A stretch of DNA of 64,000 nt from Promethearchaeota archaeon (GTDB taxonomy: Archaea > Asgardarchaeota > Lokiarchaeia > Sigyniarchaeales > SOKP01). The notes beneath the pieces are model-generated. The model made no database searches. It was not told where the DNA came from and saw only the letters and a list, made by a program, of their open reading frames with translations. Where the stretch lies: positions 128,001 through 192,000 of the forward strand of contig JAHPZA010000001.1 of assembly GCA_019058445.1 (NCBI GenBank), written 5' to 3'. Both the position numbers and the translations under genes were made by a program. Numbering within the stretch: position 1 is the stretch's first letter; each line of letters begins with the position of its first letter. This document shows, piece after piece, positions 15,058 to 32,640 of this stretch.

Positions 15058-17208
15058 ATGGAAACAAAAGATAATGGAAGGTTAAAAATGGTTTTTGTAG
15101 AACAAACGAGTGCACATAAAAAGAAAAGTAAATATCTAAAAAATTTATTACCTAGAGTGTTTAGAACGGAAGGGGATGTGGTTAAGTTTGATCCGTTAAA
15201 AATTGAAAATAGTATCATTAAAGAAACTGGTTTGGATAAAGAAAATGCTGATAGATTAACTGAAATCGTTGTGAGAAGGATCATATCATCAGGAATTCAA
15301 TTTCTCTCAGGACCCCATATTCGAGAAATAGTTTGCTCTGTTCTTTCAGAAGAACACTATGAGGACCAGAGAAAGTTATATACTCGAATTGGAATGCCTT
15401 TAATGGATTATGAAGCTATTTTAGACCAAGGCATAAATGAAAATGCTAATCAAGATATGAATCCTGAGAGTATCCATCACTGGGCTGCAAATCGAATCTC
15501 CGAAGAATATGCGCTTTTAAGGCTTTTAGATTCAGAAGAAGCTAAAGCTCATTTGTATGGTGATATCCATATCCATATGCTAAGATATTTCGATCTTCGT
15601 CCTTTCTGCCAGGAATGGGACCCTCGCATGATTCTCGAGCATGGTTTACCCCCTGTTGAAAGTTGGCCGCATTGTAGTAAATCGGCTCCTGCTGGAAGCT
15701 TGAGAGTGGCTGTAACTCATTTAGCAAAATGGTTAGGCATAATACAAGGGGAATTTTCAGGAGGACAAGGTTATGATTATATTACAACGTTTTTAGCTCC
15801 TTATGCGAGAGGAATTTCTGACAGGGAAATAGAACAATCAATGCAATGCTTAATTTTTGAAACTAACCAAATTTTTGCTGCAAGGGGTGGGCAAGTACCA
15901 TTTACTTCAATATCCTGTACTCCAACAGTACCAGAAGGGTTACTTGATATTTCAGCAATAGGACCTCATGGAAAAATAGTTGGATCTTATGGAGATTATA
16001 AAGATGAATGCCTACAGCTATTTGATGCATTAACGGATGTGTACATTAAAGGAGATCAAAATGGAAAACTTTTTGCTTTTCCAAAACATGAAATAAAAAT
16101 TAAAAAAGAATGGATAAATGATTTCGAACCGTCTTATTTGAAATTGATGGAAGAAGTGGCAACTATGGGTACTCCTTATTTCCTTAATATGTGTCCTGAC
16201 TGGATGCCTGATGAAATACATAGTCAATGTTGTAGAAAATTTCTCAGTGGAAATGAAATCATTAGTAAATGTATCCTTGATCCCGAAAAAAGAAAAGATG
16301 CAAATGTTTGGGAAAATTACGTGACTATTGGCTCTCTTCAAAGTGTAAGCTTAAATCTACCTAGATATGCCTATTTATCTCGAAATGAAGATGATTATTT
16401 GGAAATATTAGATGAAAAAATGGAATTATCTGCTAGAATTTTGATAAAAAAATGGAAGTTAATGGAAAAAAGATTACAATCAGGTCACCTCCCACTGTGC
16501 TGCGGAAAAATAAACGGAAAACCAATTTTTAATATAAACGATCAAAACCTCTCTATAGGTTTTACAGGATTAAATGAAGCCGTTAAAAGTTTAACTGGAG
16601 AAGAACTCCACGAAAGTAAAGATGCGTATAATTTGGGCAAAAAAATATTGGAATTCATGGTCGCAAAATGCAATACAATGACAGAAAGAGATGGATATTC
16701 ATATTCACTCTGGGAACAGCCCGCCGAGAGCAGTTCAGGACGCTTTGCTAAATTGGATTTGAAACATTTTCCTAAAAAAGCAATTCCTCAATCATCTGGT
16801 AAATCTGCTTATTACACAAATTCGGGTCATTTCAGATATGATGCTGATATTCCACTATCAGAAAGAATAAAAAAGCAAGGAGATTATCATCCAATCGTGA
16901 GTGGGGGTGTTATTACTCATATTTTTCTAGGAGAACAAAAACCAGACATAAATGGATTGTGGGAGCTTACAAAAAATATTTGTCTTAACACAAATACGGC
17001 ATATTTTGCATATTCTCCCGATTTTACATACTGTCCGCATTGTCGAAAGATGTTTCGAGGGGGAAGCTTTACCTGTTCTCAGTGTGGATCTCAGGACGCA
17101 AAAGTTTATTCGCGTATTACCGGATATTATAGTGAAGTTAATAGATATAATGCTGGAAAGAGAGCAGAATGGGAAACCCGAAAACGACAAAATATAGTTC
17201 ATATATAA
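15058..17208 (+). CDS. nrdD: Class III (anaerobic) ribonucleoside-triphosphate reductase with ATP cone
   Basis: ATP cone, GDIHIH, QPAES, YYTNS, CxxC...CxxC Zn site and glycyl radical motif YSRITGYY. Confidence 0.96.
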   Translation: METKDNGRLKMVFVEQTSAHKKKSKYLKNLLPRVFRTEGDVVKFDPLKIENSIIKETGLDKENADRLTEIVVRRIISSGIQFLSGPHIREIVCSVLSEEHYEDQRKLYTRIGMPLMDYEAILDQGINENANQDMNPESIHHWAANRISEEYALLRLLDSEEAKAHLYGDIHIHMLRYFDLRPFCQEWDPRMILEHGLPPVESWPHCSKSAPAGSLRVAVTHLAKWLGIIQGEFSGGQGYDYITTFLAPYARGISDREIEQSMQCLIFETNQIFAARGGQVPFTSISCTPTVPEGLLDISAIGPHGKIVGSYGDYKDECLQLFDALTDVYIKGDQNGKLFAFPKHEIKIKKEWINDFEPSYLKLMEEVATMGTPYFLNMCPDWMPDEIHSQCCRKFLSGNEIISKCILDPEKRKDANVWENYVTIGSLQSVSLNLPRYAYLSRNEDDYLEILDEKMELSARILIKKWKLMEKRLQSGHLPLCCGKINGKPIFNINDQNLSIGFTGLNEAVKSLTGEELHESKDAYNLGKKILEFMVAKCNTMTERDGYSYSLWEQPAESSSGRFAKLDLKHFPKKAIPQSSGKSAYYTNSGHFRYDADIPLSERIKKQGDYHPIVSGGVITHIFLGEQKPDINGLWELTKNICLNTNTAYFAYSPDFTYCPHCRKMFRGGSFTCSQCGSQDAKVYSRITGYYSEVNRYNAGKRAEWETRKRQNIVHI

Positions 17209-17457
17209 ATAACAAAATTTTATGCACTCTATCAATTTAAAAATCATTATATTTGAAATATTTGCATCATTAGTGAGAGATTTACTCTAGTTATATAACT
17301 TGAATGAAGATATAAATCCGAAAAAATAATATCAAGCAAATAACGAAAGACATTTTGAGATATTCACTAATAAAATTAATGATGAATTTAGAAAATTATT
17401 TAAGAAACTAAGACCTATGAACATAGGACAAAAGATTAAAGATGAGTAGATTTTTCA

Positions 17458-20400
17458 ATGAAACAAACAGAAAGATCATATTTTTCTTATTCAACAAAAT
17501 TAAAAATTGCTGCATATTGTAATAATACTTGCGCTTTTCCTTCATGTGGTAAAAAAGTTCTTAGTGGGAGGATTAAGGCAGAAGATCTCGAAAATGGATT
17601 TTCTAAAGGTGAATTTGCTCATATAGTTGGTGTATCTCCTCAAGGACCTAGGCGATCTCAAGATGTGTCTCTAGAGAGCATTAATGATGTTTCAAATGGG
17701 ATACTACTATGTGCAGAACACCATGCATTAATAGATGCAAATCCTAATGATTATCCTATAGAAACCTTAAGAAAATGGAAAAGGAATATTGAAGATAATT
17801 ATAAAAATCTTCTGTTTATCAGTGATTATGATTCATGGGATGTTGACATAAATAATTTAATTAAAACTTCTGAATTTATTCAATATTCCGAAGAATTAAA
17901 TAAATTTTTAAATAGTTCTGAGAATCTAATTGTGCACGTAGACGGCGAAATAGGAGTCGGGAAAAAAACTTTTGTAAAATATTGCTTTTCTCAATTACCT
18001 AAAAATCTGCAGAACGAAGTTATTATAATACAATCTAATGATTTTGATCTCTCAAATTTCTCATTGTTTAATAAAATGATTAAATCAAGATTCCTTATTT
18101 TGCTTGAGACTTCTCCAAATTATCTTAAAAAATTAGTTGATAGAATTAAACAAGTTAATCCAACTAGTTATAAAGTCATTTCGATTGGTTCGGGTGAATT
18201 AGTAACTAAAAAAATAAATGGAATTATAAAAAAATATACTTTAAACCGTTTAGATTCGAAAAGTTCAAGGAAATTAATCAGCCAATTAAGCAAAATTATT
18301 TCTCAGAATAATATAAAATATATTTTGGATTTGACAAAAGGAAATCCAGGAATTATTGCATCATTGGTCAAATATAATGAAAGAAAATATGATTTCACAG
18401 ATGATTCCATAATTTCTGAAATTTTCGAGAATTTCAATGAAAGAATTAAAAAAATGGGGATAGAGTTAATTCTAGTTAAAAAAATTATATTAGGTTTCTC
18501 AATCTTCTCTGAATTAGGATGGTATAAAGGATTATATAAGACATTATTTGAGAAAGGAAAATGGAGTTATGAATTTGAAGAGATACCTAACAAATTTTCC
18601 AAGATAATAAATGTTGATCTAGACAAGATTGACATTATTATTACAGAATTACTTGAACTAAAAGTTTTAGAAAGAAAAGGGAGATTTTTAACTTTATCTT
18701 TACCATGTTTATCAGGTCTTTTCATTCGTCAGACACAGGAGGTATTTCTCAAGTATTTTAAGCGAATTATGGATTTACAAGATCCACATTTATTACAAAA
18801 ATTTTTAAAACGATTAAAACAGTTTGCTTATGAAGAAGTCCTAATTTCATCAATTGTTAAGGAAATTCTCGATACTGGGTTATTATCAACTATAGACTGC
18901 CTAAATATTAATTTTTTTTCTACAATCCTCTTAAATCTTGCACAGCTTAATAATAAACTAGTGGCTGACCATCTTGAATTATTATTCAAGCATAAAAATC
19001 CACTAGAATTAAAAGAAATTTTAATCAATCGAAGAAACTTAATAACAGCTCTTGAGCATCTGATATGGTATCCAGAAACATTTAAGACGGGAATGGATAT
19101 TTTAATTAAACTAAGCATAGGTGAAAATGAAGACTGGGCTAATAATGCAACAGGATTAATACCTGAAAAATTTAGAGTATATTTACCTGGAACGTCAGCA
19201 AGTTTAGATTTGAGATTGAATTATTTATCTGAGTTTATTGCTAATTCAACTGAAGAGCATTTTTTTTTGATTCCAATGATTTTCAAATCTATTTTCTATC
19301 TAAATACTAGTTCTAGATTGATATACGCTGAGATACAATCATTTAAGCCAATACCAAAAGAATTCGTACCAAATCCAAAAGAATTGTCAAAGTATTTAAA
19401 TGAAACTTTTAAAATTTTTAAAAATCAATTTGAAAATGAAAAATTTGAAAAAGATGGATTAGAAATCATAAATAATAATTTGAAACTTTTTGTAGAACTA
19501 AACAAGTTTGAAGAAATTAAATCAATATGGAATAAAATAATAAGTAAAGATAGAGATTTTAAAATCAGATTAATAAATTTTTTCGAATATCGATTCAAGA
19601 ATGATACAATCTATCCAGATATTAAAGAGTATATAAACAAATTAAAAGAAGATTTTTCCCTACTTGATTCAATTAAAGAGTTTTCTTGGAAAAGCCCATT
19701 AGATTTTAAAGAAGAAGATATGAAATCCAAATCTCTTGAAGTAAAAAAAGTATTATCTAGTTTAGAAAAGGAAGAAATTCAAGAGATTCTAGAATGGTTA
19801 ATGAAAAATTCTGGTGATTTTGTCATACAAATTGGAATTTTGTTATCATTGGACAAAGATTGGATTGATCAATATGAAGATGTATTAGAAAGCTTTCTAA
19901 AATTAAAGGAAAATAGGGAATTTGATTTCTTTCTTGCGGTCTCTTATAACATTAGAATTAAGGACCAAGAAAGGTGGAGATCTATATTAAAAAAAATTGA
20001 AGCAAATGAAGGACTTTCACATGATTACTTTAGATTGTTAAGAGCAACTCCAATTCTCGATGATTGGGTTGTAAATAAAATAGTTGATTTAGCTGAACAT
20101 GATTTCCTAAATGAAAGTGATTTATATCAATTTTCATGTTTAGAAAATGTAATTGAATTGGATGAAAACTTGTTTAAAAAAATAATGAGAATCTATTATA
20201 ATAGATTTCCTAATGTAATTTCTGTTAAGCCTCAACAATGGAATGATAATTTATTCTTAATAAAACGATATATTGAAAAAAATCCCAATTTTATCAAAAG
20301 AAATGTTGAAGATCTATTAAAAATTCTTTTAAATTTTGAGTGTCATGAAGTTGAGATTGGTGATAAATTTTCAAGCCTTTGGTTAGAAATTATTCTTATA

Positions 20401-21009
20401 ATTATTAAAGAATGTCCGGGAACAATTAAGGAAATAAGAAAAAAAATAATTAGTTTAATTCCTAGCAAATATTTACCAATGGATTTTGACAAAACAACTA
20501 TTAACACTCTATTTATCAATTTTTATGAAATAGAAGCAGAAGATACCTGGGAAGATTTTAAAATTTTATTTAAATCCAAATCAATTGATTATGTAGAGTT
20601 TTATTTCAACCTCTTATTTCTAAAATTAGTGCCTATCAATAAAATTTTAGAATTATGTGAGGAAAATGTAGAAAAAAATCCTTTAATTCTTGTTAAAATT
20701 GTAGGAGAGGATATCCAATCTCAAAAAGGTCAAGATCTTGTTCGTGAAATTTGGTATAACTACTCGAATATTAGCAATCTTTCTTTTGAAATATATTCTA
20801 ATTATACTTCTGGTGTCAAAATATTCTCACCTGGTGAAAGCGCTAAAATTCAAGAATTTCAATTAAAAAGACTTGAGGAGTGGCTTGAAAAAGAAAAAAA
20901 AATGGAAAAAACTAGAGAAAAAATGACGATATTAATAAATGAATTGAAAAGATTAATCTCGAGGGATGAAATACACGCAAAACAGAATGATGAAGAAACA
21001 AAAATTTAG
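17458..21009 (+). CDS. HNH nuclease + STAND-like P-loop domain + long helical sensor region (Avs/NLR-like defence protein)
   Basis: CAFPSC...AHI...GPR...NGILLCAEHHALID HNH; GEIGVGKK degenerate Walker A; KGNP STAND-type helical motif; long alpha-helical C-terminus. Confidence 0.7.
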   Translation: MKQTERSYFSYSTKLKIAAYCNNTCAFPSCGKKVLSGRIKAEDLENGFSKGEFAHIVGVSPQGPRRSQDVSLESINDVSNGILLCAEHHALIDANPNDYPIETLRKWKRNIEDNYKNLLFISDYDSWDVDINNLIKTSEFIQYSEELNKFLNSSENLIVHVDGEIGVGKKTFVKYCFSQLPKNLQNEVIIIQSNDFDLSNFSLFNKMIKSRFLILLETSPNYLKKLVDRIKQVNPTSYKVISIGSGELVTKKINGIIKKYTLNRLDSKSSRKLISQLSKIISQNNIKYILDLTKGNPGIIASLVKYNERKYDFTDDSIISEIFENFNERIKKMGIELILVKKIILGFSIFSELGWYKGLYKTLFEKGKWSYEFEEIPNKFSKIINVDLDKIDIIITELLELKVLERKGRFLTLSLPCLSGLFIRQTQEVFLKYFKRIMDLQDPHLLQKFLKRLKQFAYEEVLISSIVKEILDTGLLSTIDCLNINFFSTILLNLAQLNNKLVADHLELLFKHKNPLELKEILINRRNLITALEHLIWYPETFKTGMDILIKLSIGENEDWANNATGLIPEKFRVYLPGTSASLDLRLNYLSEFIANSTEEHFFLIPMIFKSIFYLNTSSRLIYAEIQSFKPIPKEFVPNPKELSKYLNETFKIFKNQFENEKFEKDGLEIINNNLKLFVELNKFEEIKSIWNKIISKDRDFKIRLINFFEYRFKNDTIYPDIKEYINKLKEDFSLLDSIKEFSWKSPLDFKEEDMKSKSLEVKKVLSSLEKEEIQEILEWLMKNSGDFVIQIGILLSLDKDWIDQYEDVLESFLKLKENREFDFFLAVSYNIRIKDQERWRSILKKIEANEGLSHDYFRLLRATPILDDWVVNKIVDLAEHDFLNESDLYQFSCLENVIELDENLFKKIMRIYYNRFPNVISVKPQQWNDNLFLIKRYIEKNPNFIKRNVEDLLKILLNFECHEVEIGDKFSSLWLEIILIIIKECPGTIKEIRKKIISLIPSKYLPMDFDKTTINTLFINFYEIEAEDTWEDFKILFKSKSIDYVEFYFNLLFLKLVPINKILELCEENVEKNPLILVKIVGEDIQSQKGQDLVREIWYNYSNISNLSFEIYSNYTSGVKIFSPGESAKIQEFQLKRLEEWLEKEKKMEKTREKMTILINELKRLISRDEIHAKQNDEETKI

Positions 21010-22261
21010 CGAATTGATTCCAAAATTCGATAATTGTTATATTCCTTTTAGATCAAACCTTGAAATTAAGATAGATCAAATTCATTTTAGAAAAAAAGGA
21101 CAAGATGAATGGTCATATTTTTCTAAATTATTCAGTTATGAAGATGATTATAATCATATAGTTGAAATTAATAACGAAATTGATGAAAATCTAATAATTA
21201 TCTACTATAAATCACTTGATCCTATAAAGTTTTCGTCAGAATTTGTCCAACTTCGAGTTATTATAAATAATGAGATTTATAGATGTATGTGCTCAATAGA
21301 ATGGATAAAAATTGAAGATGATTTACTTCCAAAGATCGTAATTAATTCAAATTTAGGATTTAAAAAGGAAAGAATTACCTGCCTATGTCTAAAATTAAAC
21401 GACAATTGTTTGAAATTCCTTAAACAATTTAACCAATTAATTGAAACTCAAAATATTACAGATTTGACTGATATTCGTGGAATTAATATTAAAAATTATG
21501 ATATCGCAATTGTAAATATCAAATTCTTAGATGATATAAATTTATACTTGAGATTTCTAAAGAATATTGGACAAATATACATCTCTGATGACATTGGAAA
21601 ATTATCAGAAAATTGTCTCAATATCAACAAACACAATTCATCTTATTCCTTTCATTATCGTATATCTGAATTTTTAAAAATAAAATGTTTAAACATTGAG
21701 AAAAATGATAAAGTCGATTTTTGGGAACAAAATAAAGATGAATCCGAGAGATTTTGGCAAAAATACTTACAAAAGCATACTGATATCTTTTCCTCTGCTC
21801 TAAACTATACTATGGAATTTATCTGTGATGAAGGATCTGTAAGAGGGCAAGATATATATGGAAAGGGAGAAAAAAGAATAGATTTTCTATATAAAGGAAA
21901 TGATAATAATGCTATTCTAATCGAAATAAAAGGACCAAAAACTCAATTAATTATGAATATGGAATATCGTGAAGGAATATATCCTCCCACAACTGATTTA
22001 TCAGCTTCAGTCCTTCAGGTAATGGATTATAAGAAAATACTAATCGAAAATTATAATGAAATTAAAAAAAGATGTGATTGTGATGGTTTAAAGACAGACA
22101 TCATTAAATGTTATGTTATAATTGGAAACTTAGAAGATTTAAAAGAGGAACAAGAAAAAAGTTTTTCTTATTTTAAAGAAGTCGTAAACCCATATGTGGA
22201 GATAATCACCTTTGATGATCTTTTTGATAAATATAAAAAAAGCTATTTAATGGTCATTTAA
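20966..22261 (+). CDS. sduA: Shedu anti-phage nuclease SduA (DUF4263) with unknown N-terminal domain (start possibly TTG at 21014)
   Basis: C-terminal ERFWQKYL...IDFL...IEIKGP...YR...LSASVLQV...VIIG...IITFDDL. Confidence 0.8.
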   Translation: MKYTQNRMMKKQKFSELIPKFDNCYIPFRSNLEIKIDQIHFRKKGQDEWSYFSKLFSYEDDYNHIVEINNEIDENLIIIYYKSLDPIKFSSEFVQLRVIINNEIYRCMCSIEWIKIEDDLLPKIVINSNLGFKKERITCLCLKLNDNCLKFLKQFNQLIETQNITDLTDIRGINIKNYDIAIVNIKFLDDINLYLRFLKNIGQIYISDDIGKLSENCLNINKHNSSYSFHYRISEFLKIKCLNIEKNDKVDFWEQNKDESERFWQKYLQKHTDIFSSALNYTMEFICDEGSVRGQDIYGKGEKRIDFLYKGNDNNAILIEIKGPKTQLIMNMEYREGIYPPTTDLSASVLQVMDYKKILIENYNEIKKRCDCDGLKTDIIKCYVIIGNLEDLKEEQEKSFSYFKEVVNPYVEIITFDDLFDKYKKSYLMVI

Positions 22262-22323
22262 TTACAAATTATCTTTTTGGATTATGGAAAATATATAAAA
22301 ATGAGTTTGGAATACTTAAAAAT

Positions 22324-24222
22324 TTATTTATTGTCTTTTATGAAAGTTTGAAGATCTATAAAGAAATTGAAATTATCGCTTGTAATATTAGTTTTAAGTG
22401 TTTCTACTTCTTTATAAGTAACTGTCTCTGCTTCAGTATTATTTCTTTTCTTACAAACAAATTTCCCATCTTCCTGTTCTACAAGAATTGGTTCCCTTGT
22501 TTGCTTAATAGCAACAATCAAAATGATTTTTTCTATATCGAAATCATCTATCAATTTTATCTCTTTACATTTAATAAAATCCTTTTTTGGTTCTGTAAAT
22601 TTCCTTAATACTTTCTTAATTTGTTTAATTTTTTCCTCTAATCCATCAATTCCGACAATCTTTTTTGGATCATCATCTGTAATACCAATAATTAATAAGC
22701 CACCATCATAATTGGCAAAACTTGTTACTTGATTGCAGAATTTAATTTTAGCCCTCTTTTTTTCTGATTTGCTGGATTTTTCCCAAAAGTCAAGTGTTTG
22801 CTTAAAGTCCCATAAATCATTTTCAATGCGGTTAGGTTCTATAGCTTTTTTTATAAAAAGAATTAAAGCTTCTTCATTATATAAAAAGGTTTGTTGCAGT
22901 CTATATTTGTTAATATCTAAATCTAATTCTTCATAAATTTCTTCAAAATCTTCTTCAAGAATTTTGTTCACAATGGATTTAGTGTTTTCTTTTTGAATTA
23001 AATATACAGAGCATTCCTCTTCATTTTCGTATAAAAATTCTCTAGAATGCGTAGTTATAAAAATCTGATTAGATTTTGATTCTTGAAGGAATTTATCCCT
23101 TAACTTAATTTCTAATCCAGGATGTAAATGAAGCCCAGGTTCTTCTATACATAGTATATTATCTTGCCCAATTTCCATGATATAAGCAATAAAGTGTGCT
23201 ATGTTAAGTATACCAGCACCCATATTGTCCAAATTCAATTCTATGTTTAAATCATTTTCTTTTAAAATTAATATAGTATAATCATTTTCGATCACTTCTT
23301 GCCTTAGTATATCAATTTCAGGAATAAATTCTAATAATTGCTTATTAAGTTTTGAGTTCCAATCATGTTCATTGGTAACCAATTTCTTATATATTATAGT
23401 AACTAAATTACTTCCTACCGGATCCAGACTTAAGCGAGTGGCCCCTGAGGTCTCAGCCCTTGGATTAAATCTACGTTTATCTGGAATAATATGGATATTT
23501 TCAAAAAATTTAATTAATTCTTTAGCTATAAATGGAATAGGGGGATAATTTTCAAGATTCAAATGTTCTTCTAAAATTTGTTTTATATATCGAATTCCAC
23601 CAGTTCTTATATTTGCAAAATAATTTTTTAGAAATACTCTATCAATTGAAACATTTTGTTTTTGAATAGCTTTAGGATTATATACTGAGTTTTGAAAATT
23701 ATCATTATCAAGTCTTTTAAAATGGAACAAATCTTGATAGTTATTATCCATATGTAAAATTTGAATTCTTTCAATATATAAAGCCTTTCCAATATCGTAC
23801 TTTTTCAAAAAAATTTTAATTTTATTGAAATATTCATTTGATTTAAGCCAGTCTAAAGCGACTTTTGTGTCATTCCAATTAAATTCTTGAAATTTTGGAT
23901 CATTTTTCCTTGTATAATCAAAAACTCTATTTAAAAAATTTCGAGTGATAAGTTCCAATATAATTTTATTTCTAAACTCTGATGTTAGGGAAAAAATTAG
24001 ATTAAGTTCTAATGGTAGTGTTTCGTCTCCATCATAATATTGTTCTCTATTTACTTTTCTTTCTGAATAAGAATCTTGGAGTATCTTAAATATTTTAAAT
24101 AAATTTGATTTACCTGAACTATTTTTTCCTATTATAACATTGTAATCTTTAAAATCCTCAAATTTAGCATCTTTATAACTCAAGAAATTTTTGATTTCTA
24201 TTCCTGAAAGCTTAATATTCAA
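22324..24222 (-). CDS. ABC-type ATPase (AAA_15/OLD-like) fused to a C-terminal Schlafen AlbA_2 domain
   Basis: GKNSSGKS, MGAG signature, IEEPGLHLHP, ITTHS; C-terminal ENDLWDFKQ...SFANYDGGLLIIGITD...IVGI. Confidence 0.8.
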   Translation of the reverse strand: MNIKLSGIEIKNFLSYKDAKFEDFKDYNVIIGKNSSGKSNLFKIFKILQDSYSERKVNREQYYDGDETLPLELNLIFSLTSEFRNKIILELITRNFLNRVFDYTRKNDPKFQEFNWNDTKVALDWLKSNEYFNKIKIFLKKYDIGKALYIERIQILHMDNNYQDLFHFKRLDNDNFQNSVYNPKAIQKQNVSIDRVFLKNYFANIRTGGIRYIKQILEEHLNLENYPPIPFIAKELIKFFENIHIIPDKRRFNPRAETSGATRLSLDPVGSNLVTIIYKKLVTNEHDWNSKLNKQLLEFIPEIDILRQEVIENDYTILILKENDLNIELNLDNMGAGILNIAHFIAYIMEIGQDNILCIEEPGLHLHPGLEIKLRDKFLQESKSNQIFITTHSREFLYENEEECSVYLIQKENTKSIVNKILEEDFEEIYEELDLDINKYRLQQTFLYNEEALILFIKKAIEPNRIENDLWDFKQTLDFWEKSSKSEKKRAKIKFCNQVTSFANYDGGLLIIGITDDDPKKIVGIDGLEEKIKQIKKVLRKFTEPKKDFIKCKEIKLIDDFDIEKIILIVAIKQTREPILVEQEDGKFVCKKRNNTEAETVTYKEVETLKTNITSDNFNFFIDLQTFIKDNK

Positions 24223-24648
24223 ATCTCCTTTCCCCCTTAATAATGATTTAAGACTCTTCTGATATTCTTTAGCAAAATATAATATTTATTCTCTTTGGTA
24301 AATTAGAAATTATAGAATAATAATTTAATAATATTAATTAAAAAGTAAAAATAAAGAGAGTCTAATTATTTTTTACAATTCATTAAACACAATTTTACAA
24401 ATTTTGAAGCAGATCTTCATTCTTTTAAATCTTAATATAATTCTAAATTATTGAATTCAATATTTTCGTATATACTAGAACTATAATTTCAATTTTTATC
24501 AATACTCATGTATAGTAATCCTTAAGGTTAGTATTTAATTATGAATATAAATATAAAGCTATCAAATAGTTATAGATTACTAGTATATATTTAAATTCAC
24601 TTAATTACAAATAATTTTATATATTAATACATAAAAAAAGATTTTTTA

Positions 24649-26190
24649 ATGATAAAAATGAACGAGGCAAGCGTTATTGTACCAAAAAGTGAAATTAGTG
24701 ACGATTTCTTAATTAAGAATTACTGTAAGCTCATTAAAAAAGGGGAGATTGAATTTCTAGAGAAAATGGATAGTTTTGACATATATGATAAGAATTATGA
24801 AGAATTAAAGGATGAGTCTAACTATATAAAAATTGATACTAAGAATCTTGTTAATATTTTAAATGATCTCACTATAGAAGATAAAAAAGAAGAAGAAAAA
24901 GTAAAGATTCTGAAAAAGAAAAAAATAATATTTCAGAAACTATGGCCGAATTTTGTAAGGAGTGCTATTAAATATCTAAGAATAAAAGATACTCGAGATA
25001 AAGGTACCTTTAAATTTGATTTTGGAGTCAACAATTTAACAAAATATTTTGAAGAATTCTCAAAATTTGAAGAAATTCTTTATGGAATTGACGAATACTA
25101 TCGAGATCATTCCCTACATGTTTTTAGAGTGTATCTTTTAGGAGTATATTTAGTAAGAAAATTTTTTAAAGATTATGATCAATTGAAGATTAAAAATAAA
25201 CCTTCTATAATCGGTAAAATCTTTTCTGATGAAAAAGAAGCGATTTGGTGCGTTATAGCATTATGTCATGATTTAGGATATCCATTACAGAAATTAGATG
25301 AATTAAATAAAAAACTTGTTAAAATACTCGAATTTTTTGGTACTTCAAATTTTAATCCTTTAAGATTTAGCTTACCTCTTGAAGGAACAATCTTAGACAA
25401 ATTTATTTTAAAATTAATTTCGTCAAGAATCAATGACAACTTATTGATTCAACATCAACCTAAATTTTATGCAAAATACTCTAAGGCTTATGAAAAATTG
25501 AGCCATGGAATAATGTCTTGTATCTTATTAATGAAAAATTTAGTATATTTTAAAGAAACAGATTATGAACCTGATTTCCAAAAAGGTTTTAAATATATTA
25601 AAGAGCCTTCTACAAATAGCAACGATTTTGATGAAAGAACTTTAGAGGATGCAAGACAATATGTAATTAGAAGAGAAATACTACGATCAATTGCTTCCCA
25701 TGATAACGAAGATATTTATCATATAGAAATGAATAATTTTCCCTTTTTATTGATAATGTGTGATGAAATCCAGGAATGGAGCCGACCTGCTTCAAAAATA
25801 AGACTACTATATGCCTTAGATGAAAAAAATAGAGAGATAATTAATATCAATGCTTTTAATGAAAATATAATAGATATCTTAATAAATTTAAATTTTGATG
25901 AAAATGATTTATTAAATTATGTTGCAAAGAAATATATGAAATTTATTCGATTATTGAGAAGTGCTGTAGATTCAGATAAACGGAAATTTAATTTTATAAT
26001 GTCGATACAAAATAGGGAAGGCATAAAATACCAGTTTATTTATGAAAGTCCTAATGAATTCTATACTGATGAAGAAAAGAAAAAAATGGAAATCTCGTAT
26101 GAAGAACCAAAATGTATAAAATTTATAAATGAAAAACCAATAGAAGATTTCTCATTAAGGAATATTATTGATTTAATAAATAAAAAATGA
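24649..26190 (+). CDS. HD-superfamily metal-dependent phosphohydrolase
   Basis: RDHSLHVFRV, CHDLG, SHG, SHD and CDEIQEWSR metal-ligand motifs. Confidence 0.75.
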   Translation: MIKMNEASVIVPKSEISDDFLIKNYCKLIKKGEIEFLEKMDSFDIYDKNYEELKDESNYIKIDTKNLVNILNDLTIEDKKEEEKVKILKKKKIIFQKLWPNFVRSAIKYLRIKDTRDKGTFKFDFGVNNLTKYFEEFSKFEEILYGIDEYYRDHSLHVFRVYLLGVYLVRKFFKDYDQLKIKNKPSIIGKIFSDEKEAIWCVIALCHDLGYPLQKLDELNKKLVKILEFFGTSNFNPLRFSLPLEGTILDKFILKLISSRINDNLLIQHQPKFYAKYSKAYEKLSHGIMSCILLMKNLVYFKETDYEPDFQKGFKYIKEPSTNSNDFDERTLEDARQYVIRREILRSIASHDNEDIYHIEMNNFPFLLIMCDEIQEWSRPASKIRLLYALDEKNREIININAFNENIIDILINLNFDENDLLNYVAKKYMKFIRLLRSAVDSDKRKFNFIMSIQNREGIKYQFIYESPNEFYTDEEKKKMEISYEEPKCIKFINEKPIEDFSLRNIIDLINKK

Positions 26191-26750
26191 CAGTAAATGA
26201 TTATACTGATATAAAAACTATTGAAATTAAGAAAAGGGATTTAATATTTTCTAAAAAAACTCGTTTGTGGTGTAGATTACCATATCCAAATCATCCTTAT
26301 GGATGTCCAAATTATAATAAAAATCCATTATGTCCCCCTTTTGCCGATTACATGGATTATATTAAAAAAAAATATTCTCATTTTTATTTAATTTATGCTA
26401 TTTTTAAATTAAAAAGTCAAAGAGAAAGAATGCTTTCAATCCATCCAAATTGGTCAATAAAAAAAGCTAATTGTTTGTTATATTGGCAGGGTTCTGTAAA
26501 AAAAGTCTTAAAAAACTATATTCAAAGGATTATACTAAAAAATAAAAATAGAAAAACCTATATTTTAGCATGTGGTTCTGGATTTAAATTTAGTAGTATT
26601 CATCAAAATAAAGTCTATAGTATGGAAGCTGTAGGAATAAATGTATTAAAAACTTTAGATAATGTGGGAATAGAATACGAACTTAAACCTAAGAATAAAG
26701 TATTACTAGTTACACTATTATGTTCTCAAGAGTACCTTTTATTTTTTTAA
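26187..26750 (+). CDS. DUF2284-like predicted metal-binding protein
   Basis: WC...GCPNYNKNPLCPP and SMEAVGINV motifs; ATGA overlap with the HD gene. Confidence 0.7.
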   Translation: MTVNDYTDIKTIEIKKRDLIFSKKTRLWCRLPYPNHPYGCPNYNKNPLCPPFADYMDYIKKKYSHFYLIYAIFKLKSQRERMLSIHPNWSIKKANCLLYWQGSVKKVLKNYIQRIILKNKNRKTYILACGSGFKFSSIHQNKVYSMEAVGINVLKTLDNVGIEYELKPKNKVLLVTLLCSQEYLLFF

Positions 26751-27771
26751 ATTCTTCAGGTATATAATCTTTAGTTAAATCTATTTGTTTAATGTTATTG
26801 CATACTAATTTTTGAATTGGACAAATTTCATTACATATTTTTCTTTCTAAACAATATCCACATTTTAGATTTTCTTTAAAATGCTGTAATTCTATATCTA
26901 ATAACCTATTAGAAATAACTTTTCGAAGCGAATTTTTATCATTCAGTTTCACGAAGCAATTTGAAATATTTTTAAAAGCAGTACAAGGAAATAATTTAAG
27001 ATCAGATGTAATCATAAATTTATTTTTTCCAGCTTCACACTTAAAACAAGAATTACTAAGGTTAGAAAATGCCGATCCTATTTCGACTTTAGAGGAAGGA
27101 TAATTTAATTTCACATTATTTAAAATGATAGCTAGATCTTCTTTGCTAAATACTAATTTCTCATGATTTTTTAAAGCCCTACCATGTAATATAAGGCGAA
27201 GTATCTTGACATGTTTAATATTTAGCTCATTTATTAAATATTCTATTGTATCTTCAAGGTATTTAATATTTAAACAATTAGGGATGATATGAACTTCAGT
27301 ATTGATATTTAAATCTATACATGATTTAATTGAAGTTATAGTATTTTCAAAACCAAATGTGGTTTTTGTTAATTTAGCAAAATTTTCTTTATCAATGGTT
27401 TGAAAATTATATCTTATTGTCAAATTAGGATGATTTTTATATCTCATTAAGATATTTTTAGGAATAGGCAAATACTCCCTATCTTTATAAATACATCCAC
27501 AAGAGTAAATTTCCAGCAAAAAATCACAATTTAGAATATAATCAATAAATTCTATAATGTTTGGATGAAGAAATGGTTCTCCTCCTGATAATTGGATAAT
27601 ATCAAGACCAAGTTTTTTAGCATCTTGAATAAGTTCGATAAATTTCTTTTTTTCTATATATTTCTTCTTATAGATGGTTGAATCACTAGAACAAAAAATA
27701 CAATTAAAAGGACATTTGTTAGTTATTTCAATCAACAATTCTTTTTTCTTTTTCAATTTTGCTTTCCTCAA
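26710..27771 (-). CDS. Radical SAM/SPASM domain protein
   Basis: CPFNCIFC, SGGEPF, and SPASM cysteines CEAG...FPC...CGYCLERKICNEICP. Confidence 0.9.
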   Translation of the reverse strand: MRKAKLKKKKELLIEITNKCPFNCIFCSSDSTIYKKKYIEKKKFIELIQDAKKLGLDIIQLSGGEPFLHPNIIEFIDYILNCDFLLEIYSCGCIYKDREYLPIPKNILMRYKNHPNLTIRYNFQTIDKENFAKLTKTTFGFENTITSIKSCIDLNINTEVHIIPNCLNIKYLEDTIEYLINELNIKHVKILRLILHGRALKNHEKLVFSKEDLAIILNNVKLNYPSSKVEIGSAFSNLSNSCFKCEAGKNKFMITSDLKLFPCTAFKNISNCFVKLNDKNSLRKVISNRLLDIELQHFKENLKCGYCLERKICNEICPIQKLVCNNIKQIDLTKDYIPEEFKKIKGTLENIIV

Positions 27772-28065
27772 CGATTCAATTCTAATATTGACTTAGATAC
27801 TTTTAATCTTTTTCTATATAAAAAAATAAAAATATCTTGGTTTTTTCTCATCATCTCCTAAACTTGTTTAACTCTATATTATGCTTAAATATTAGAAATA
27901 TTTTAAATCTTTTAGCTTTTCTCATTTAAAATATATTTCTTAAAAATATTTAAAATTATTGGCAATGAAATTATTCGAAATTTAATAAAATCTCATTTAA
28001 TTAATAAGATTTTGATTTCAATTTAACTTATAATAAAAAAATAGATTTAACCGACAAATTTATAT

Positions 28066-28093
28066 TATTCTCTTTTCTTAAGAATTGAGAATA
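28066..28093. promoter_or_regulatory. 28 bp near-perfect palindrome, putative operator of the adjacent wHTH gene
   Basis: TATTCTC-TT-TTCTTAAGAA-TT-GAGAATA directly after a TATA-like TTTATA, ~35 bp upstream of 28128. Confidence 0.45.
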
Positions 28094-28127
28094 TTTAAAA
28101 ATGCTTGTTTATAATTTAATTATGTAG

Positions 28128-28454
28128 ATGATTGCCCTTGAAAAAGAGATAATTATTATAAATTTTTTAAATGAGAAAGCTATAAATTTATTATATATTC
28201 TAGCTAAAAAATATCCAATAACTAGCGTTAATTTGAGGAATAAGGTTATTAAAAATGAAATAATGTCTATAAGTTCTTACTATAGGTATCTGGATTTCCT
28301 TTTGAAACATAAACTGATAAAAAAAGAAAAATATAGAAAGAAGACAGGGGGTTATATTTATAATATAAGTAATTTTGGTAAGTATTTCCTAGAATTAATT
28401 TTAAAATCAAACATTCCTTTTTATAATAATCTAAATCATGATCTAAACTCATAA
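28128..28454 (+). CDS. Winged helix-turn-helix transcriptional regulator
   Basis: MSISSYYRYLDFLLKHKLI...YNISNFG wHTH pattern; divergent from the radical SAM gene. Confidence 0.7.
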   Translation: MIALEKEIIIINFLNEKAINLLYILAKKYPITSVNLRNKVIKNEIMSISSYYRYLDFLLKHKLIKKEKYRKKTGGYIYNISNFGKYFLELILKSNIPFYNNLNHDLNS

Positions 28455-28498
28455 ACTTATAGAATAGCGGATTTTTATTTAAAAAATTTAAAGTGTTT

Positions 28499-28940
28499 AA
28501 TTCCTCAATCTTCTGATAATTAGGCTTACTATACAAATTCAAGTTATTTCAGATATGATGCTGAGATTTTACATTCAGAAAGGATTAAAAAACAAGGAGA
28601 TTACCATTCTATTATAAGTGGTTGAGTAATTATTCATAAAAGCTTAGGCGAGCAAAAATCAGACATACAAGGATTATGAGAATTAACTAAAAATATTTGC
28701 CATAATAATAACACAGCATATTATGCCTACACTACAGATTTCACTTATCACCCTTATTGAAGAAGAATCTTTCGAGGGGACAGTTTTACCTTTTAAGAAT
28801 GTGGTGCTCAAGATGCCAGAATTTACTCCAGAATTACTGGCTATTATAATGAAGTAAATAAATATAATGAGGGAAATAGAGCAGGATGGGAAGCCTGTAA
28901 AAGAGATTATATCAACGTATTACAGAGATTAAAAAAATAA
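28499..28940 (+). pseudogene. nrdD: Displaced, decayed 3' fragment of nrdD
   Basis: Frame from 28500 reads IPQSSDN*AYYTNSSYFRYDAE...QGDYH...YSRITGYYNEVNKYN...; collinear with the nrdD C-terminus; 5 internal stops, no frameshift. Confidence 0.93.
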
Positions 28941-31339: not shown

Positions 31340-32086
31340 ATGCGAATTGGCGGAATAATTGATATTTCTACAAAAGATATTCCAAATAAAGCATGCATGG
31401 TTATCTTTACTAATGGGTGTAATTTTAATTGCGAATTTTGTCATAACAAACATTTATTACAAAATAATCGCGGTAAAATTATAAAAGTAGAAGAGTTAAT
31501 GAAACTAATAAATAATAACCTACTAGTTAATAGTTTAAGTATCACAGGGGGCGAACCGACGCTTCAGGAGGATTTAGTAGAGTTATGTAGAGAAATCACT
31601 AAGTTAGGGAAATATCTAAGTATAGATACTAACGGTTCTAGACCTGAAATCATTCAAAAAGTTATTCCATATATTAATAGAATTGCTTTAGATATAAAAG
31701 CACCGTTAAAGCAACATCAATTAGAGAGAGTTGCTAGAAAAAGTATAGACCCTACGTTAATTACTCAGACATTTCTTATGCTAAATACCAGTAAGACTAT
31801 TGATTTTGAAATTAGGACCACTTATGCTGAAAACTTATTGACACCAGGGGATATTCATGAGATAATTTTCTTTCTTAAGGAGCATAATTTTAGAGGCAAT
31901 TATGTCTTACAACAATATAACTATTCTGAGGGGGTGGGTAAAGAGTTTAGAAATAAGTTTCATAAGCCGTCGCATCTTTCTTTAGTCAATATTCTTGGTT
32001 CTTATAAAAATCGCAATGTACCTTTTGAAATTTATTTAAGAGATGATATTGTTGGGTATTGCATGCTTAAAGAAATATTTAATTAA
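31340..32086 (+). CDS. nrdG: Anaerobic ribonucleotide reductase activating radical SAM protein
   Basis: FTNGCNFNCEFCHN, ITGGEPTLQ, IDTNGS, LDIKAP, EIRTT; near nrdD. Confidence 0.9.
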   Translation: MRIGGIIDISTKDIPNKACMVIFTNGCNFNCEFCHNKHLLQNNRGKIIKVEELMKLINNNLLVNSLSITGGEPTLQEDLVELCREITKLGKYLSIDTNGSRPEIIQKVIPYINRIALDIKAPLKQHQLERVARKSIDPTLITQTFLMLNTSKTIDFEIRTTYAENLLTPGDIHEIIFFLKEHNFRGNYVLQQYNYSEGVGKEFRNKFHKPSHLSLVNILGSYKNRNVPFEIYLRDDIVGYCMLKEIFN

Positions 32087-32187: not shown

Positions 32188-32505
32188 ATGAGTGAAACAA
32201 AATCATTAGCATCAATTCAAGAGAAAATTGATAAGTTTATAGAGAATCATGGGGGATATTGGCCTCCTCTTTCCATGCTTAGTGCGTTAATGGAAGAGAT
32301 CGGAGAATTAGCACGTGAAATAAATCATTTAGAAGGTTTTAAACCAAAAAAAACTACAGAAACGCAAATTGATATAGGGGAAGAACTTGGGGATATTCTA
32401 TTTGCAATTATATGTTTAGCAAATTTCTACAATATCGATTTACATGAAAAAATAAATGAAATTATTGACAAATACCGAAATAGAGATTCTACACGGTTTA
32501 TTTAA
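32188..32505 (+). CDS. MazG-like nucleotide pyrophosphohydrolase
   Basis: EEIGELARE...EELGDILF motifs. Confidence 0.9.
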   Translation: MSETKSLASIQEKIDKFIENHGGYWPPLSMLSALMEEIGELAREINHLEGFKPKKTTETQIDIGEELGDILFAIICLANFYNIDLHEKINEIIDKYRNRDSTRFI

Positions 32506-32640
32506 GAGGAGAGAGGTAATTAAATCTTTCTTTTTATTCAATTAGGGAAGAATAGATTATAATATTTTAATTCAATAGATAATTCTAACTTTTAATCAAT
32601 TAGAAATAGATAAACGGAAATATTCACATATAATAGAGAA

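Follow-up and report, generated by a model that had tools for sequence, protein, structure and literature searches.

Gene islands are usually put down to integrases or transposases. The elements e14 and phage 21 insert in the 3' part of E. coli icd, supply a replacement tail for the gene and leave a pseudo-tail at their far end; e14 encodes its own integrase and uses one fixed core. Insertion of Tn7 produces a 5-bp target duplication. Insertion of restriction-modification genes with a long target duplication was reportedly described by Nobusato et al. in 2000. A later screen for such long target duplications used direct repeats of more than 30 bp, an insert of less than 20 kb, the lack of mobility genes and a relative with an empty site, and no archaeal case came through it (PMC2853133; Furuta et al. 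2010). In fungal mitochondria, mORF elements have been described in atp6 of Allomyces macrogynus and in atp6, atp9, cox2 and nad3 of Glomus; a foreign C-terminus together with a LAGLIDADG ORF displaces the native C-terminus, and in the Glomus atp6 element the two C-terminal copies are strongly diverged, at 63.5% (PMC3630166). For the Rhs/CDI loci and the effector arrays of the Vibrio T6SS, homology-facilitated illegitimate recombination (HFIR) has been proposed (PMC5361080 and works cited in it). The nrdD gene itself has been reported as the att site of archaeal Tn7-like elements, one of them in a Promethearchaeota genome (bioRxiv 10.1101/2025.07.27.667033).

The locus described here lies in a 64,000-nucleotide stretch of a Promethearchaeota archaeon genome (the window, to which all positions refer) and resembles each of these systems in part. 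As in the e14 case, a duplication of the 3' end of the target gene brackets the insert; however, no integrase was found here, the edges differ from one genome to the next, and at the repeat edge nothing marks the intact tail as foreign. Low-GC defence genes, long direct repeats, the lack of mobility genes and an empty-site relative recall the restriction-modification insertions, but in those the repeats are near-identical copies of recipient sequence, whereas here, clearly so in the relatives G096 and G106, they are of different lineages. The Tn7-like elements use the same gene end as a landing site for cargo DNA in Asgard archaea, yet no tns genes were found here, and Tn7 does not produce long duplications of a gene end. 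The likeness to a mORF consists of a working housekeeping gene with an inserted C-terminal piece, a second and diverged C-terminal copy downstream, and a LAGLIDADG endonuclease gene at a locus with no integrase. The locus differs from a mORF in that the insert is 11.3 kb of cargo and not one endonuclease ORF, in that the endonuclease gene of the window stands beyond the displaced tail and not between the copies (it is between them in G106), and in that it is carried on an archaeal chromosome, with an endonuclease that derives from an intein and has a Zn ribbon at its N-terminus. Finally, the Rhs/CDI/T6SS arrays share with this locus a constant 5' part followed by displaced 3' fragments (orphan tails) and stacked cargo, the lack of a recombinase, and orphans that come from other lineages, of which the window has one and G096 and G106 two each. 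In contrast to those loci, which vary the toxin tip of a gene and keep immunity genes, the gene here encodes a conserved metabolic enzyme, the function of its tail is unaltered, and the cargo bears no relation to the gene.

Results

The duplicated end of nrdD

The intact nrdD of the window (Table 1) matches TIGR02487 at 459.6 bits (cut-off 326), and its product is 80-91% identical in amino acids to the orthologues of relatives. Its last 427 nt, copy A, hold four Zn-site Cys and the RITGYY glycyl-radical motif. They recur as copy B, collinear and ungapped, at 72.8% identity (74%, without gaps, for 16782-17081 against 28499-28798; tblastn E = 2e-59). Over the 427 nt to the stop, the mismatches at codon positions 1/2/3 number 28-29/22/65-66. 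Copy B has 5 in-frame stops and has lost three of the four Zn-site Cys, and at those codon positions 1+2 that are invariant in four close genomes it carries 12-15% private changes, a pattern that indicates long neutral decay.

Table 1. Features of the nrdD locus, with positions in the window.
Feature	Position	Strand	Basis
Intact nrdD, anaerobic ribonucleoside-triphosphate reductase, 716 aa	15058..17208	+	PF13597, 477.7 bits
Repeat copy A, working nrdD 3' end, codons 576-716	16782..17208	+	Sequence comparison
Inserted block, 11,290 bp, 24.7% GC, seven genes, three defence-type	17209..28498		Absent from closest relative G003
Protein with N-terminal HNH nuclease domain, defence-effector type, 1183 aa	17458..21009	+	PF13391
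Shedu SduA-like nuclease, 431 aa	20966..22261	+	PF14082, 84 bits; PADLOC SduA, 134.5 bits
ABC-type ATPase (AAA_15/AAA_21) fused to AlbA_2/Schlafen, 632 aa	22324..24222	-	Pfam, PADLOC
513-aa protein, first gene of three-gene module	24649..26190	+	55% aa identity to G055 counterpart
DUF2284 metal-binding protein, 187 aa	26187..26750	+	PF10050, 52.4 bits; 62% aa identity to G055 module
Radical SAM (SPASM-type) enzyme, 353 aa	26710..27771	-	PF04055, 59.4 bits; 54% aa identity to G055 module
Putative winged-helix protein, last block gene, 108 aa	28128..28454	+	DUF4364, 19.4 bits, below cut-off
Repeat copy B, dead 5'-truncated nrdD tail, codons 576-716	28499..28925	+	Sequence comparison
Free-standing intein-derived LAGLIDADG endonuclease gene, 734 aa	28960..31164	-	PF14528, PF14890
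nrdG, activating radical-SAM enzyme of NrdD	31340..32086	+	TIGR02495, 152.5 bits (cut-off 131); NrdG2
Family backbone: MazG-like gene (32188-32505), PLP-dependent decarboxylase (32641-33822)	32188..33822	+	Synteny

Both copies open with the 12-mer AATTCCTCAATC, which has two exact occurrences in the window (16782 and 28499; chance expectation 0.04). Outside the repeat the identity between the two regions is random, at 24% upstream and 35% downstream of the stop. The left edge of copy B is genuine, since neither shuffle tests nor a family profile of NrdD residues 380-575 found anything nrdD-like upstream of 28499. More specifically, an extension of copy B back to 28371, hinted at by tblastn, was rejected by the shuffles (p = 0.07-0.5 for protein and 0.53 for nucleotide), and the profile scores for an upstream extension were negative throughout. 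The 12-mer sits where conservation resumes after a hypervariable linker, and thus its identity needs no att function.

The inserted block and its surroundings

Among all 11.3-kb stretches of the window the block between the copies has the lowest GC content (window median 31%), and each of its genes has 21-26% GC. A defence assignment was obtained for three of the seven genes (HNH, SduA, ABC ATPase), the other four being without one; several known defence families are therefore clustered here, as in a defence island. The HNH protein matches PADLOC PDC-M68A (82.6 bits) and HNH 'Effector' models (70-83 bits). The ATPase, the sole one of the block, has PADLOC matches of the AriA/HEC-01A/GajA type (85-87 bits for AriA/HEC-01A), and its homologues in G065, G012 and G008 (38-42% amino acid identity) are all at other loci. 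No Pfam, NCBIfam or PADLOC match was found for the 513-aa protein; the presence of an HD protein beside the nrdD orphan of G065 hints that it might be an HD-type hydrolase. The radical SAM enzyme has SPASM-family NCBIfam matches. The G055 module has no homologue of the 108-aa ORF, which stops 45 bp short of copy B; the ORF looks complete, and the idea that the last block gene is truncated, as a mark of an illegitimate joint, was rejected. This genome holds no second copy of block DNA, and in 60 family genomes no intact copy of the block was found, only the three-gene module (G055, 67% nucleotide identity) and homologues of single genes. The region 12000-34000 is without a tRNA gene, which excludes a tRNA-type att site.

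Pfam searches detected no recombinase domain in any block ORF, and none of these ORFs was recognised as an integrase, a Tn7 gene or a protein of the serine-recombinase type. Six-frame searches of the whole genome with PF00589 (Phage_integrase) and PF16795 (SSV-type integrase) gave no match in the window; the matches are confined to contigs 6, 9 and 3, and the genome has two tyrosine recombinases only, both on other contigs. Neither TniQ nor rve was found in the window, and their best matches in the genome, both on contig 6, have E = 0.13 (TniQ) and 0.007 (rve). TniQ is present in 3 of 135 family genomes; in G065 its gene lies ~6 kb from an nrdD orphan. No recombinases were found in the cargo of G096, G106, G099 and G065.

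Convergent with copy B and 35 bp from it stands the LAGLIDADG gene, whose product consists of a Zn ribbon, a linker and a Hint/LAGLIDADG body that ends in 'IKN*' without a C-extein. The protein matches VMA-type intein structures and keeps acidic residues in both LAGLIDADG motifs (SEGS, GDGS). Close homologues number five in 135 genomes (G000, which is the window genome, G019, G065, G106 and a remnant in G147); all five adjoin an nrdD tail, and four are convergent with it at 11-35 bp. The gene is present in 3 of 9 orphan-bearing genomes versus 2 of 126 others, counts that come from related genomes and are not independent samples. In G106 it is flanked by the intact nrdD and by orphan 1, whose left edge is 49 bp away; in G019, G065:C75 and G147 it has no adjoining orphan within the regions compared. 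A scan of genome contigs with the endonuclease protein as query gave no match.

In the closest relative, G003, nrdD is followed by nrdG after a gap of 54 bp, and in G007 nrdG also comes directly after nrdD. These arrangements support the view that the block is an insertion relative to G003. The MazG-like/PLP decarboxylase backbone is kept 3' of nrdD in 13-14 of the compared relatives, and in five other genera the MazG-like gene is within ~0.1 kb of nrdD, compared with an interval of 15 kb in the window.

Much of what an earlier note had described from these letters was borne out. The ~430-bp end of nrdD does recur (427 nt, second copy at 28499-28925), collinearly and with the third-position differences and 5 stops that had been noted, and homology does begin abruptly at an identical 12-mer, the upstream identity of 24% being random. 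The interval is very AT-rich, at 24.7% GC, with both sampled lines (19441 and 25861) at the values given, 18% and 10% GC. Defence-type genes (Shedu SduA, HNH effector-like, ABC ATPase-AlbA_2/Schlafen) lie in it and, according to the Pfam and six-frame integrase searches, a recombinase does not. The placement of nrdG beyond the dead copy also stands, but a 2.2-kb endonuclease gene separates the two.

Recurrence in relatives

The relatives compared were Promethearchaeota/Promethearchaeia MAGs, with a family set of 135 genomes, in which the interval 3' of nrdD can be as short as 0.05 kb and as long as 15 kb. In at least 9 of the 135, variable cargo has an orphan nrdD tail on its distal side, and in two of these genomes the tails form serial arrays; the orphans listed are from G008, G024, G065, G096 (two), G099, G106 (two), G128 and G129. 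Wherever flanks were available the orphans are distal to cargo and adjoin native or backbone DNA. In nine genomes their left edges fall at codons ~560, 572, 576, 592, 619, 628, 630, 636, 646, 654 and 658, and this scatter over codons ~560-658 argues against one fixed att core. The cargo is unlike in every genome (CBASS in G065; SUKH/DUF285, Fer4/FUR-like and PEMT methyltransferase in others). When nrdD-nrdG intervals were compared across relatives, much as the earlier note had suggested, variable cargo was found at this site; its idea of an Asgard defence hotspot holds to that extent, but the cargo is mixed and not only defence.

An orphan of G096 has diverged by 23% from the resident tail (19/12/64 differences at codon positions 1/2/3), and its 137 codons are free of stops; the undecayed orphans of G096 and G106 differ mainly at synonymous sites. 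G101 has the empty site, and its nrdD flank matches the DNA past the distal orphan of G096 at 92% identity over 2.3 kb. In this pair the divergent tract of the resident gene starts at the left edge of the distal orphan, which is easier to reconcile with a crossover at the edge, in the style of e14 or a mORF, than with an internal crossover. The candidate reading of this pair as a clean switch within the glycyl-radical tract lost weight, as the G101 tail shares only 79% identity with orphan 2. For G106, a change of affinity at the orphan edge was set aside, as the jump at codon 570 is common to control genomes because codons 555-569 are hypervariable. Measured against relatives, the G008 orphan shows distances like those of the gene body.

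Ancestry of the two tails

Copy A groups with G002 (UFBoot 93-99%) and copy B with the G008 tail (UFBoot 68-97%). The AU test of A and B as sisters was borderline (p = 0.050-0.057 in the window); the same test of a sister relation between resident and orphan gave p = 1e-51 in G096 and p = 0.013 in G106, and a position of copy B within the clade of the gene body gave p = 0.34. Tree topology thus supports the view that the two tails are probably of different lineages and not a simple in-situ duplicate, and for this reason the foreign DNA would seem to have brought its own tail. The raw divergence of A and B, 46% at third positions, is not far above what long decay and synonymous drift could produce.

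No phylogenetic break was found at 16782: sliding identity is without a step there, informative sites show none, and a recombination breakpoint at this position was rejected. Copy A and the gene body are equally close to G003 and G002, and according to the informative sites the G003-like pattern of the body runs ~110 nt past 16782 before any switch. Because nrdD is mosaic throughout among close relatives, a switch 110 nt inside the repeat cannot be tied to the insertion. An alignment of tails and flanks with G003, G002, G008 and G007 was uninformative on the crossover position in the window.

The e14-style reading of the earlier note is consequently retained in part. That incoming DNA carried its own nrdD C-terminus is favoured by the different lineages of the tails (UFBoot, AU), but the view that the whole last 427 nt came in, with the crossover at the 12-mer, conflicts with the continuation of the gene-body pattern for ~110 nt past 16782, and the scattered orphan edges also speak against a single att site like that of e14. 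The enzyme would be chimeric at most from the crossover onward. The separate trees that had been proposed gave different partners for the two copies (G002 for A, G008 for B).

Discussion

The comparisons establish the architecture of the locus, the absence of recombinase genes in the sequences searched and the reappearance of this layout in relatives, where both cargo and edges vary; they also support a different ancestry for each tail. From these we infer a mechanism of recombination and a form of the incoming DNA. The best explanation, to which a probability of roughly 0.55 may be given, is homology-guided entry of foreign DNA at the nrdD end by host enzymes, with no element-encoded integrase. 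The incoming DNA would have consisted of cargo genes linked to a 5'-truncated nrdD tail that runs from codon 576 to the stop, and a single exchange inside the shared 427-nt tail would yield the observed product, either by a Campbell-type single crossover of a circle or by homologous repair at one end and an illegitimate joint at the other. The result would be a complete nrdD, the cargo and a 5'-truncated spare tail beside native downstream DNA, and the spare tail, being dispensable, would decay. The left edge of copy B would then mark the limit of the homologous fragment and not necessarily the crossover point. The gene-body pattern that continues ~110 nt past the repeat edge appears to fit such an exchange inside the repeat; however, the tails were already ~10% diverged, which would make homologous exchange inefficient. 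A possible stimulus is the intein-derived LAGLIDADG endonuclease, the gene for which adjoins nrdD tails.

A special case of this explanation, unlikely but deserving consideration, names that endonuclease as the trigger: the LAGLIDADG enzyme would cut the nrdD 3' end, and repair would copy a resistant foreign tail with the DNA that follows it, stranding the native tail downstream, much as in the published mORF cases (PMC3630166). The attachment of all five close homologues to nrdD tails (four convergently, at 11-35 bp), the higher frequency of the gene among orphan-bearing genomes, the mORF layout of G106 and the acidic residues in both motifs argue for it, whereas the window gene lies outside the A-to-B interval, distal to copy B, six orphan-bearing genomes lack the gene, and three carriers (G019, G065:C75, G147) have it without an adjoining orphan in the regions compared. 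The gene and orphan counts are moreover drawn from related genomes. An element of the e14/phage-21 type, its integrase lost or supplied in trans, would have recombined attP x attB at the 12-mer, so that copy A would be wholly foreign and copy B native. This would account for the bracketing by a duplicated gene end, for the abrupt opening of homology at the 12-mer and for the native position of copy B beside the downstream genes, and the resident gene of G096, which turns outlier at the distal orphan's left edge, and the gene-body-like distances of the G008 orphan are in line with it. It is made improbable by the lack of an integrase in the block and in the cargo of four relatives (G096, G106, G099, G065), by the location of both tyrosine recombinases of the genome on other contigs, by orphan edges that spread over ~100 codons, by the absence of a phylogenetic break at 16782, by the affinities of the tails (A no farther from G003 and G002 than the gene body, B with G008) and by the placement of the 12-mer at the point where conservation resumes after the hypervariable linker.

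Under long target duplication of the restriction-modification type, both copies would stem from the recipient's own tail and the distal one would have decayed. The low-GC defence genes, long direct repeats and missing mobility genes agree with the features used in PMC2853133, each repeat can be aligned with the one copy that the empty-site genome has, and decay can explain much of the A-B divergence. However, the trees join A and B to other partners (UFBoot 97-99%) and not to each other (AU p = 0.05 for sisters), a sister relation is rejected in G096 (p = 1e-51) and G106 (p = 0.013), and the synonymous character of most differences in the undecayed orphans of these two genomes also speaks against it, making this account highly improbable. 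Scarcely credible is a decayed Tn7-like element with its attachment site in nrdD, or an assembly artefact. The former could draw on the reported att site (bioRxiv 10.1101/2025.07.27.667033) and on the TniQ gene near an orphan in G065, but TniQ and rve do not rise above noise in this genome, TniQ is confined to 3 of 135 family genomes, and Tn7 duplicates 5 bp against 427 nt here. As to the latter, the assembly comprises 10 contigs for 4.6 Mb, and collapse is dismissed because the repeats are 27% diverged and repeats of this kind do not mislead assemblers.

Homology-guided entry by host enzymes, the preferred reading, may be part of a wider pattern, as related genomes appear to show recurrent integrase-free gene addition at nrdD. 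A more tentative proposal, possible but itself rather doubtful, is that the nrdD tail serves as a homology 'handle' for integrase-free gene capture in Promethearchaeia, in which host recombination would insert and stack cassettes with a truncated tail and perhaps also excise them, with breaks seeded by a domesticated nrdD-cutting LAGLIDADG endonuclease; this would be a chromosomal archaeal counterpart of the mORF that builds defence islands, and if true would provide a link to a mechanism documented until now in mitochondria. The history of the nrdD 3' end probably differs from that of the gene body, and caution is therefore advisable when this end is used in phylogenies. Orphan gene tails offer a simple sequence signature for locating such sites elsewhere. 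For the Asgard family examined here, the finding suggests that foreign genes, antiviral systems included, are gained repeatedly at one housekeeping gene without an integrase or transposase, and that the stranded gene tail left by each such event is a scar that can be dated.

The repeated nrdD tail and its insert

The last 427 nt of nrdD recur downstream in exact register and without gaps, at an offset of 11,717 nt (copy A, the working 3' end, and copy B, the dead tail; see table). The two copies share 72.8% nucleotide and 67% amino-acid identity, with 28-29, 22 and 65-66 differences at first, second and third codon positions. Copy B carries five in-frame stops and has lost three of the four zinc-site cysteines, its RITGYY glycyl-radical motif being still legible. 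Both copies open with the 12-mer AATTCCTCAATC, found only at 16782 and 28499 (chance expectation 0.04), and their flanks are unrelated (24% identity upstream, 35% past the stop). The collinear repeat, its five stops and its abrupt start at a shared 12-mer had thus been correctly described in the earlier note. An extension of copy B to 28371, proposed by tblastn, was rejected; shuffles and a profile of 33 family NrdD sequences score nothing upstream of 28499, and the left edge is therefore real. Codons 555-569 (window ~16720-16764), ahead of the conserved C-terminal block, form a short hypervariable linker in all orthologues (61-74% nucleotide identity) and conservation restarts at about codon 570, so the edge sits where detectable similarity would start anyway. 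The orphans (5'-truncated nrdD tails apart from the full gene) of this genome and of the related genome G106 both start just past this linker. Repeats that are 27% diverged cannot mislead an assembler, and the genome comprises 10 contigs (4.6 Mb). The Asgard assignment also holds, the relatives of nrdD being Promethearchaeota/Promethearchaeia MAGs.

Features of the nrdD region in window coordinates
Feature	Position	Strand	Remarks
nrdD	15058-17208		716 aa; PF13597 477.7 bits, TIGR02487 459.6 bits
Copy A	16782-17208		codons 576-716 of nrdD
Insert	17209-28498		between copies A and B
HNH protein	within insert		1183 aa; N-terminal HNH nuclease, defence-effector type
Shedu	within insert		SduA homologue
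ABC ATPase	within insert		fused to AlbA_2/Schlafen domain
Three-gene module	24649-27771		513-aa protein without family hit, DUF2284, radical-SAM/SPASM enzyme
Small gene	within insert		putative winged-helix
Copy B	28499-28925		dead tail
LAGLIDADG gene	28960-31164	minus	734 aa; intein-derived; distal to copy B
nrdG	31340-32086		NrdG2 152.5 bits; distal to copy B, after LAGLIDADG gene

The insert (11,290 bp) has a GC content of 24.7%, the lowest of all equal-length stretches in the window (median 31%), and each of its seven genes lies at 21-26%; a very AT-rich island with defence-type genes between two nrdD tails is what had been claimed. The three-gene module is present as a unit (54-62% amino-acid identity) at an unrelated locus of G055, a genome of another genus (contig 236, locus L063, 3200-6320), so the inserted block is a mosaic. 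There is no second copy of island DNA in the same genome and no tRNA gene near the island. HD-type proteins also adjoin nrdD tails in G065 and G106.

A second nrdD-like gene of 604 aa lies on contig 3 of the same genome (120459-122258; L002 1486-3300). It is 60% identical over residues 29-392 and ends near NrdD residue 655, so that the tail with Zn ribbon and glycyl-radical site is apparently missing. This short type is the sole nrdD-like gene found in G001, G005, G006 and G009.

Variable cargo downstream of nrdD in relatives

The closest relative, G003 (NrdD 91% identical), has the same four upstream genes and nrdD, followed by nrdG 54 bp on; the two genes are adjacent in G007 as well. The family backbone runs TGT-C2/PUA, NAC, two small genes, nrdD, a MazG-like gene, PLP decarboxylase and DUF2100, and the gap from nrdD to the MazG-like gene measures ~0.05-0.12 kb in five genomes (G010, G011, G015, G022, G023), 0.9 kb in G003, 1.2-2.9 kb in G017, G099 and G101, 8.9 kb in G096 and 15 kb in the window. 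With a gap of 0.05-15 kb and cargo that differs everywhere, the site downstream of nrdD is a variable-cargo site, and the hotspot proposed earlier is borne out, though as a defence hotspot only in part.

A census of 135 family genomes with NrdD residues 576-716 as query found further orphans in G008, G024, G065, G096 (two), G099, G106 (two), G128 and G129. Wherever flanks are available the orphan is distal to the cargo, beside native DNA, and in G099, G106 and G129 it immediately precedes the MazG-like backbone gene. Past the distal orphan of G096, 2.3 kb of DNA match the nrdD flank of the insert-free G101 at 92% identity. Cargo kinds include SUKH/DUF6891, DUF285, Fer4, FUR-like, a PEMT methyltransferase and a CBASS pair; no recombinase was found in the relatives' examined cargo. 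The left edges of orphans fall at codons ~560, 572, 576, 592, 619, 628, 630, 636, 646, 654 and 658.

Several MAG contigs end shortly after nrdD (609 bp downstream in G002, 652 bp in G008, 423 bp in G014), which would fit strain-level variation at the site within the sampled populations. The G008 orphan (L049, contig 662, 1245-1544) reads as an undisrupted ORF of 99 aa that has its own ATG; the four Zn-site cysteines are all retained, and so is the glycyl-radical motif. By analogy with GrcA/YfiD, which serves pyruvate formate-lyase as a spare part, this ORF might be expressed on its own as a replacement piece.

Ancestry of the two tails

The gene-body tree places the window with G003 and G002, as ((G003,G002),window) with G008 outside (support 92-100%). 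In the tail tree copy A groups with G002 (support 93-99%); copy B goes with G008, at 68% for 15 taxa, 97% for 36 taxa and 90% for the last 93 codons. Placing A and B as sisters gave p = 0.057 and 0.050 in AU tests, and placing B within the gene-body clade was not rejected (p = 0.34-0.36). Where four close genomes are invariant, copy B has private changes at 11.7% of first, 14.7% of second and 25.6% of third codon positions, mainly G/C to A/T. This pattern indicates long neutral decay, by a rough estimate for about half the age of the split from G003. Decay accounts for a large part of the 27% divergence, so in-situ duplication is not excluded by divergence alone; for the window the tree does exclude it, but at borderline significance only. 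In G096, orphan and resident tail (that of the intact gene) differ at 19/12/64 positions over 137 codons, with no stop, and a sister relation is rejected (p = 1e-51); the same test gave p = 0.013 in G106, and the G008 pair differs at 9/4/29 positions over 94 codons, again with no stop. The relatives' tails diverged as working genes in separate lineages and were later brought together.

Identity to G003 and G002 has no step at the repeat edge. At sites that distinguish the two, the window sides with G003 (42:14) over a stretch that opens 240 nt before the edge and closes ~110 nt after it, and with G002 (33:20) over the remainder. Mosaic tracts of this kind are spread over the whole of nrdD, so this switch is not attributable to the insertion event. 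Of the earlier note, the island, the hotspot and the absence of an integrase stand. Its specific e14-like reading, in which incoming DNA replaces the 3' end as in E. coli icd and strands the native tail, with a wholly foreign C-terminus and the crossover at the 12-mer, is not demonstrated, there being no identity step and a G003 pattern that persists past the edge. In G096 the resident gene's divergent tract (codons ~658-682) begins right at the left edge of the distal orphan, in line with an exchange at the edge of the e14 or mORF kind. A G096/G101 switch in the invariant glycyl-radical tract, suggested by a first alignment, lost weight, the G101 tail being only 79% identical to the distal orphan. 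Measured against relatives, the G008 orphan shows distances similar to those found for the gene body, another hint that the orphan is the native tail.

Mechanism of insertion

Homology-guided, integrase-independent insertion is the reading we favour, at slightly better than even odds (about 0.55). The incoming DNA would have been a 5'-truncated nrdD tail, stop codon included, joined to cargo, and one homologous exchange between it and the resident gene would yield the observed layout. Insertion-duplication by a non-replicating circle would give this product, and so would one-ended homologous repair in which the second joint is illegitimate (homology-facilitated illegitimate recombination, HFIR); HFIR has been proposed as the source of the orphaned 3' regions lined up at Rhs, CDI and Vibrio T6SS loci (PMC5361080). 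Homologous exchange would explain why left edges are arbitrary, why an integrase is missing, why cargo varies and why orphans are stacked, and homology would stop at the stop codon because donor cargo and recipient flank diverge there.

The same insertion may have been triggered by an endonuclease, although we consider this unlikely. In the 734-aa protein an N-terminal Zn ribbon and a ~260-residue linker precede a body made up of Hint and double LAGLIDADG, in which both acidic residues are kept; it ends in IKN and thus has no C-extein. Close homologues (52-56% amino-acid identity) occur in just four other genomes of the 135 and all adjoin nrdD tails: convergent with full nrdD at 11-20 bp in G019, G065 and G147 (a remnant), and between intact nrdD and the first orphan, 49 bp from the orphan edge, in G106. 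Such strong positional linkage is typical of a free-standing homing endonuclease targeting an adjacent conserved gene, which makes nrdD cleavage a candidate activity, and there is a precedent in fungal mitochondrial mORF elements, whose LAGLIDADG gene accompanies insertion of a foreign C-terminus and stranding of the native one downstream (PMC3630166). In the window the gene is not between copies A and B, and six of the genomes with orphans have no such gene. Rather less probable is a classical integrase element whose enzyme was lost or acted in trans: as previously noted, no island ORF has a recombinase domain, and a six-frame, stop-tolerant search of the whole genome found Phage_integrase on contigs 9 and 6 only and nothing convincing for SSV-type integrase, TniQ or rve. 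True target duplication is improbable; like the restriction-modification "insertion with long target duplication" (PMC2853133), whose layout the island shares, it takes both repeats to stem from the recipient itself, and the relatives contradict this. A Tn7 remnant or an artefact is the least credible origin. nrdD is a reported att site of archaeal Tn7-like elements, including one Promethearchaeota genome (bioRxiv 10.1101/2025.07.27.667033), and TniQ occurs in 3 of 135 family genomes. On G065 contig 28 (L069 and just beyond it) TniQ (16188-16631) and an orphan (22798-23058) lie ~6 kb apart with a CBASS pair (SMODS and Cap17-like) and an HFX_2341-like gene between them, probably a Tn7-like element with the nrdD tail as att site. 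Such a mechanism exists nearby but cannot account for the window island, and it would produce no duplication of 427 nt.

In about ten genomes of the family the open nrdD frame is 1187-1228 or 1658-1687 aa long, equivalent to one or two inteins (for example L068 528-4082); the G099 intein lies near residue 170-184.

Apart from the Tn7 att-site report, we found no description in the literature of such an event for nrdD or Asgard archaea. Its kind, a gene-tail duplication round an insert with displaced orphans, has precedents in mitochondria and, among bacteria, at toxin and restriction-modification loci. The safe statement for the window is a single exchange somewhere within the shared tail, and the NrdD enzyme would be chimeric at most from the exchange point onward.
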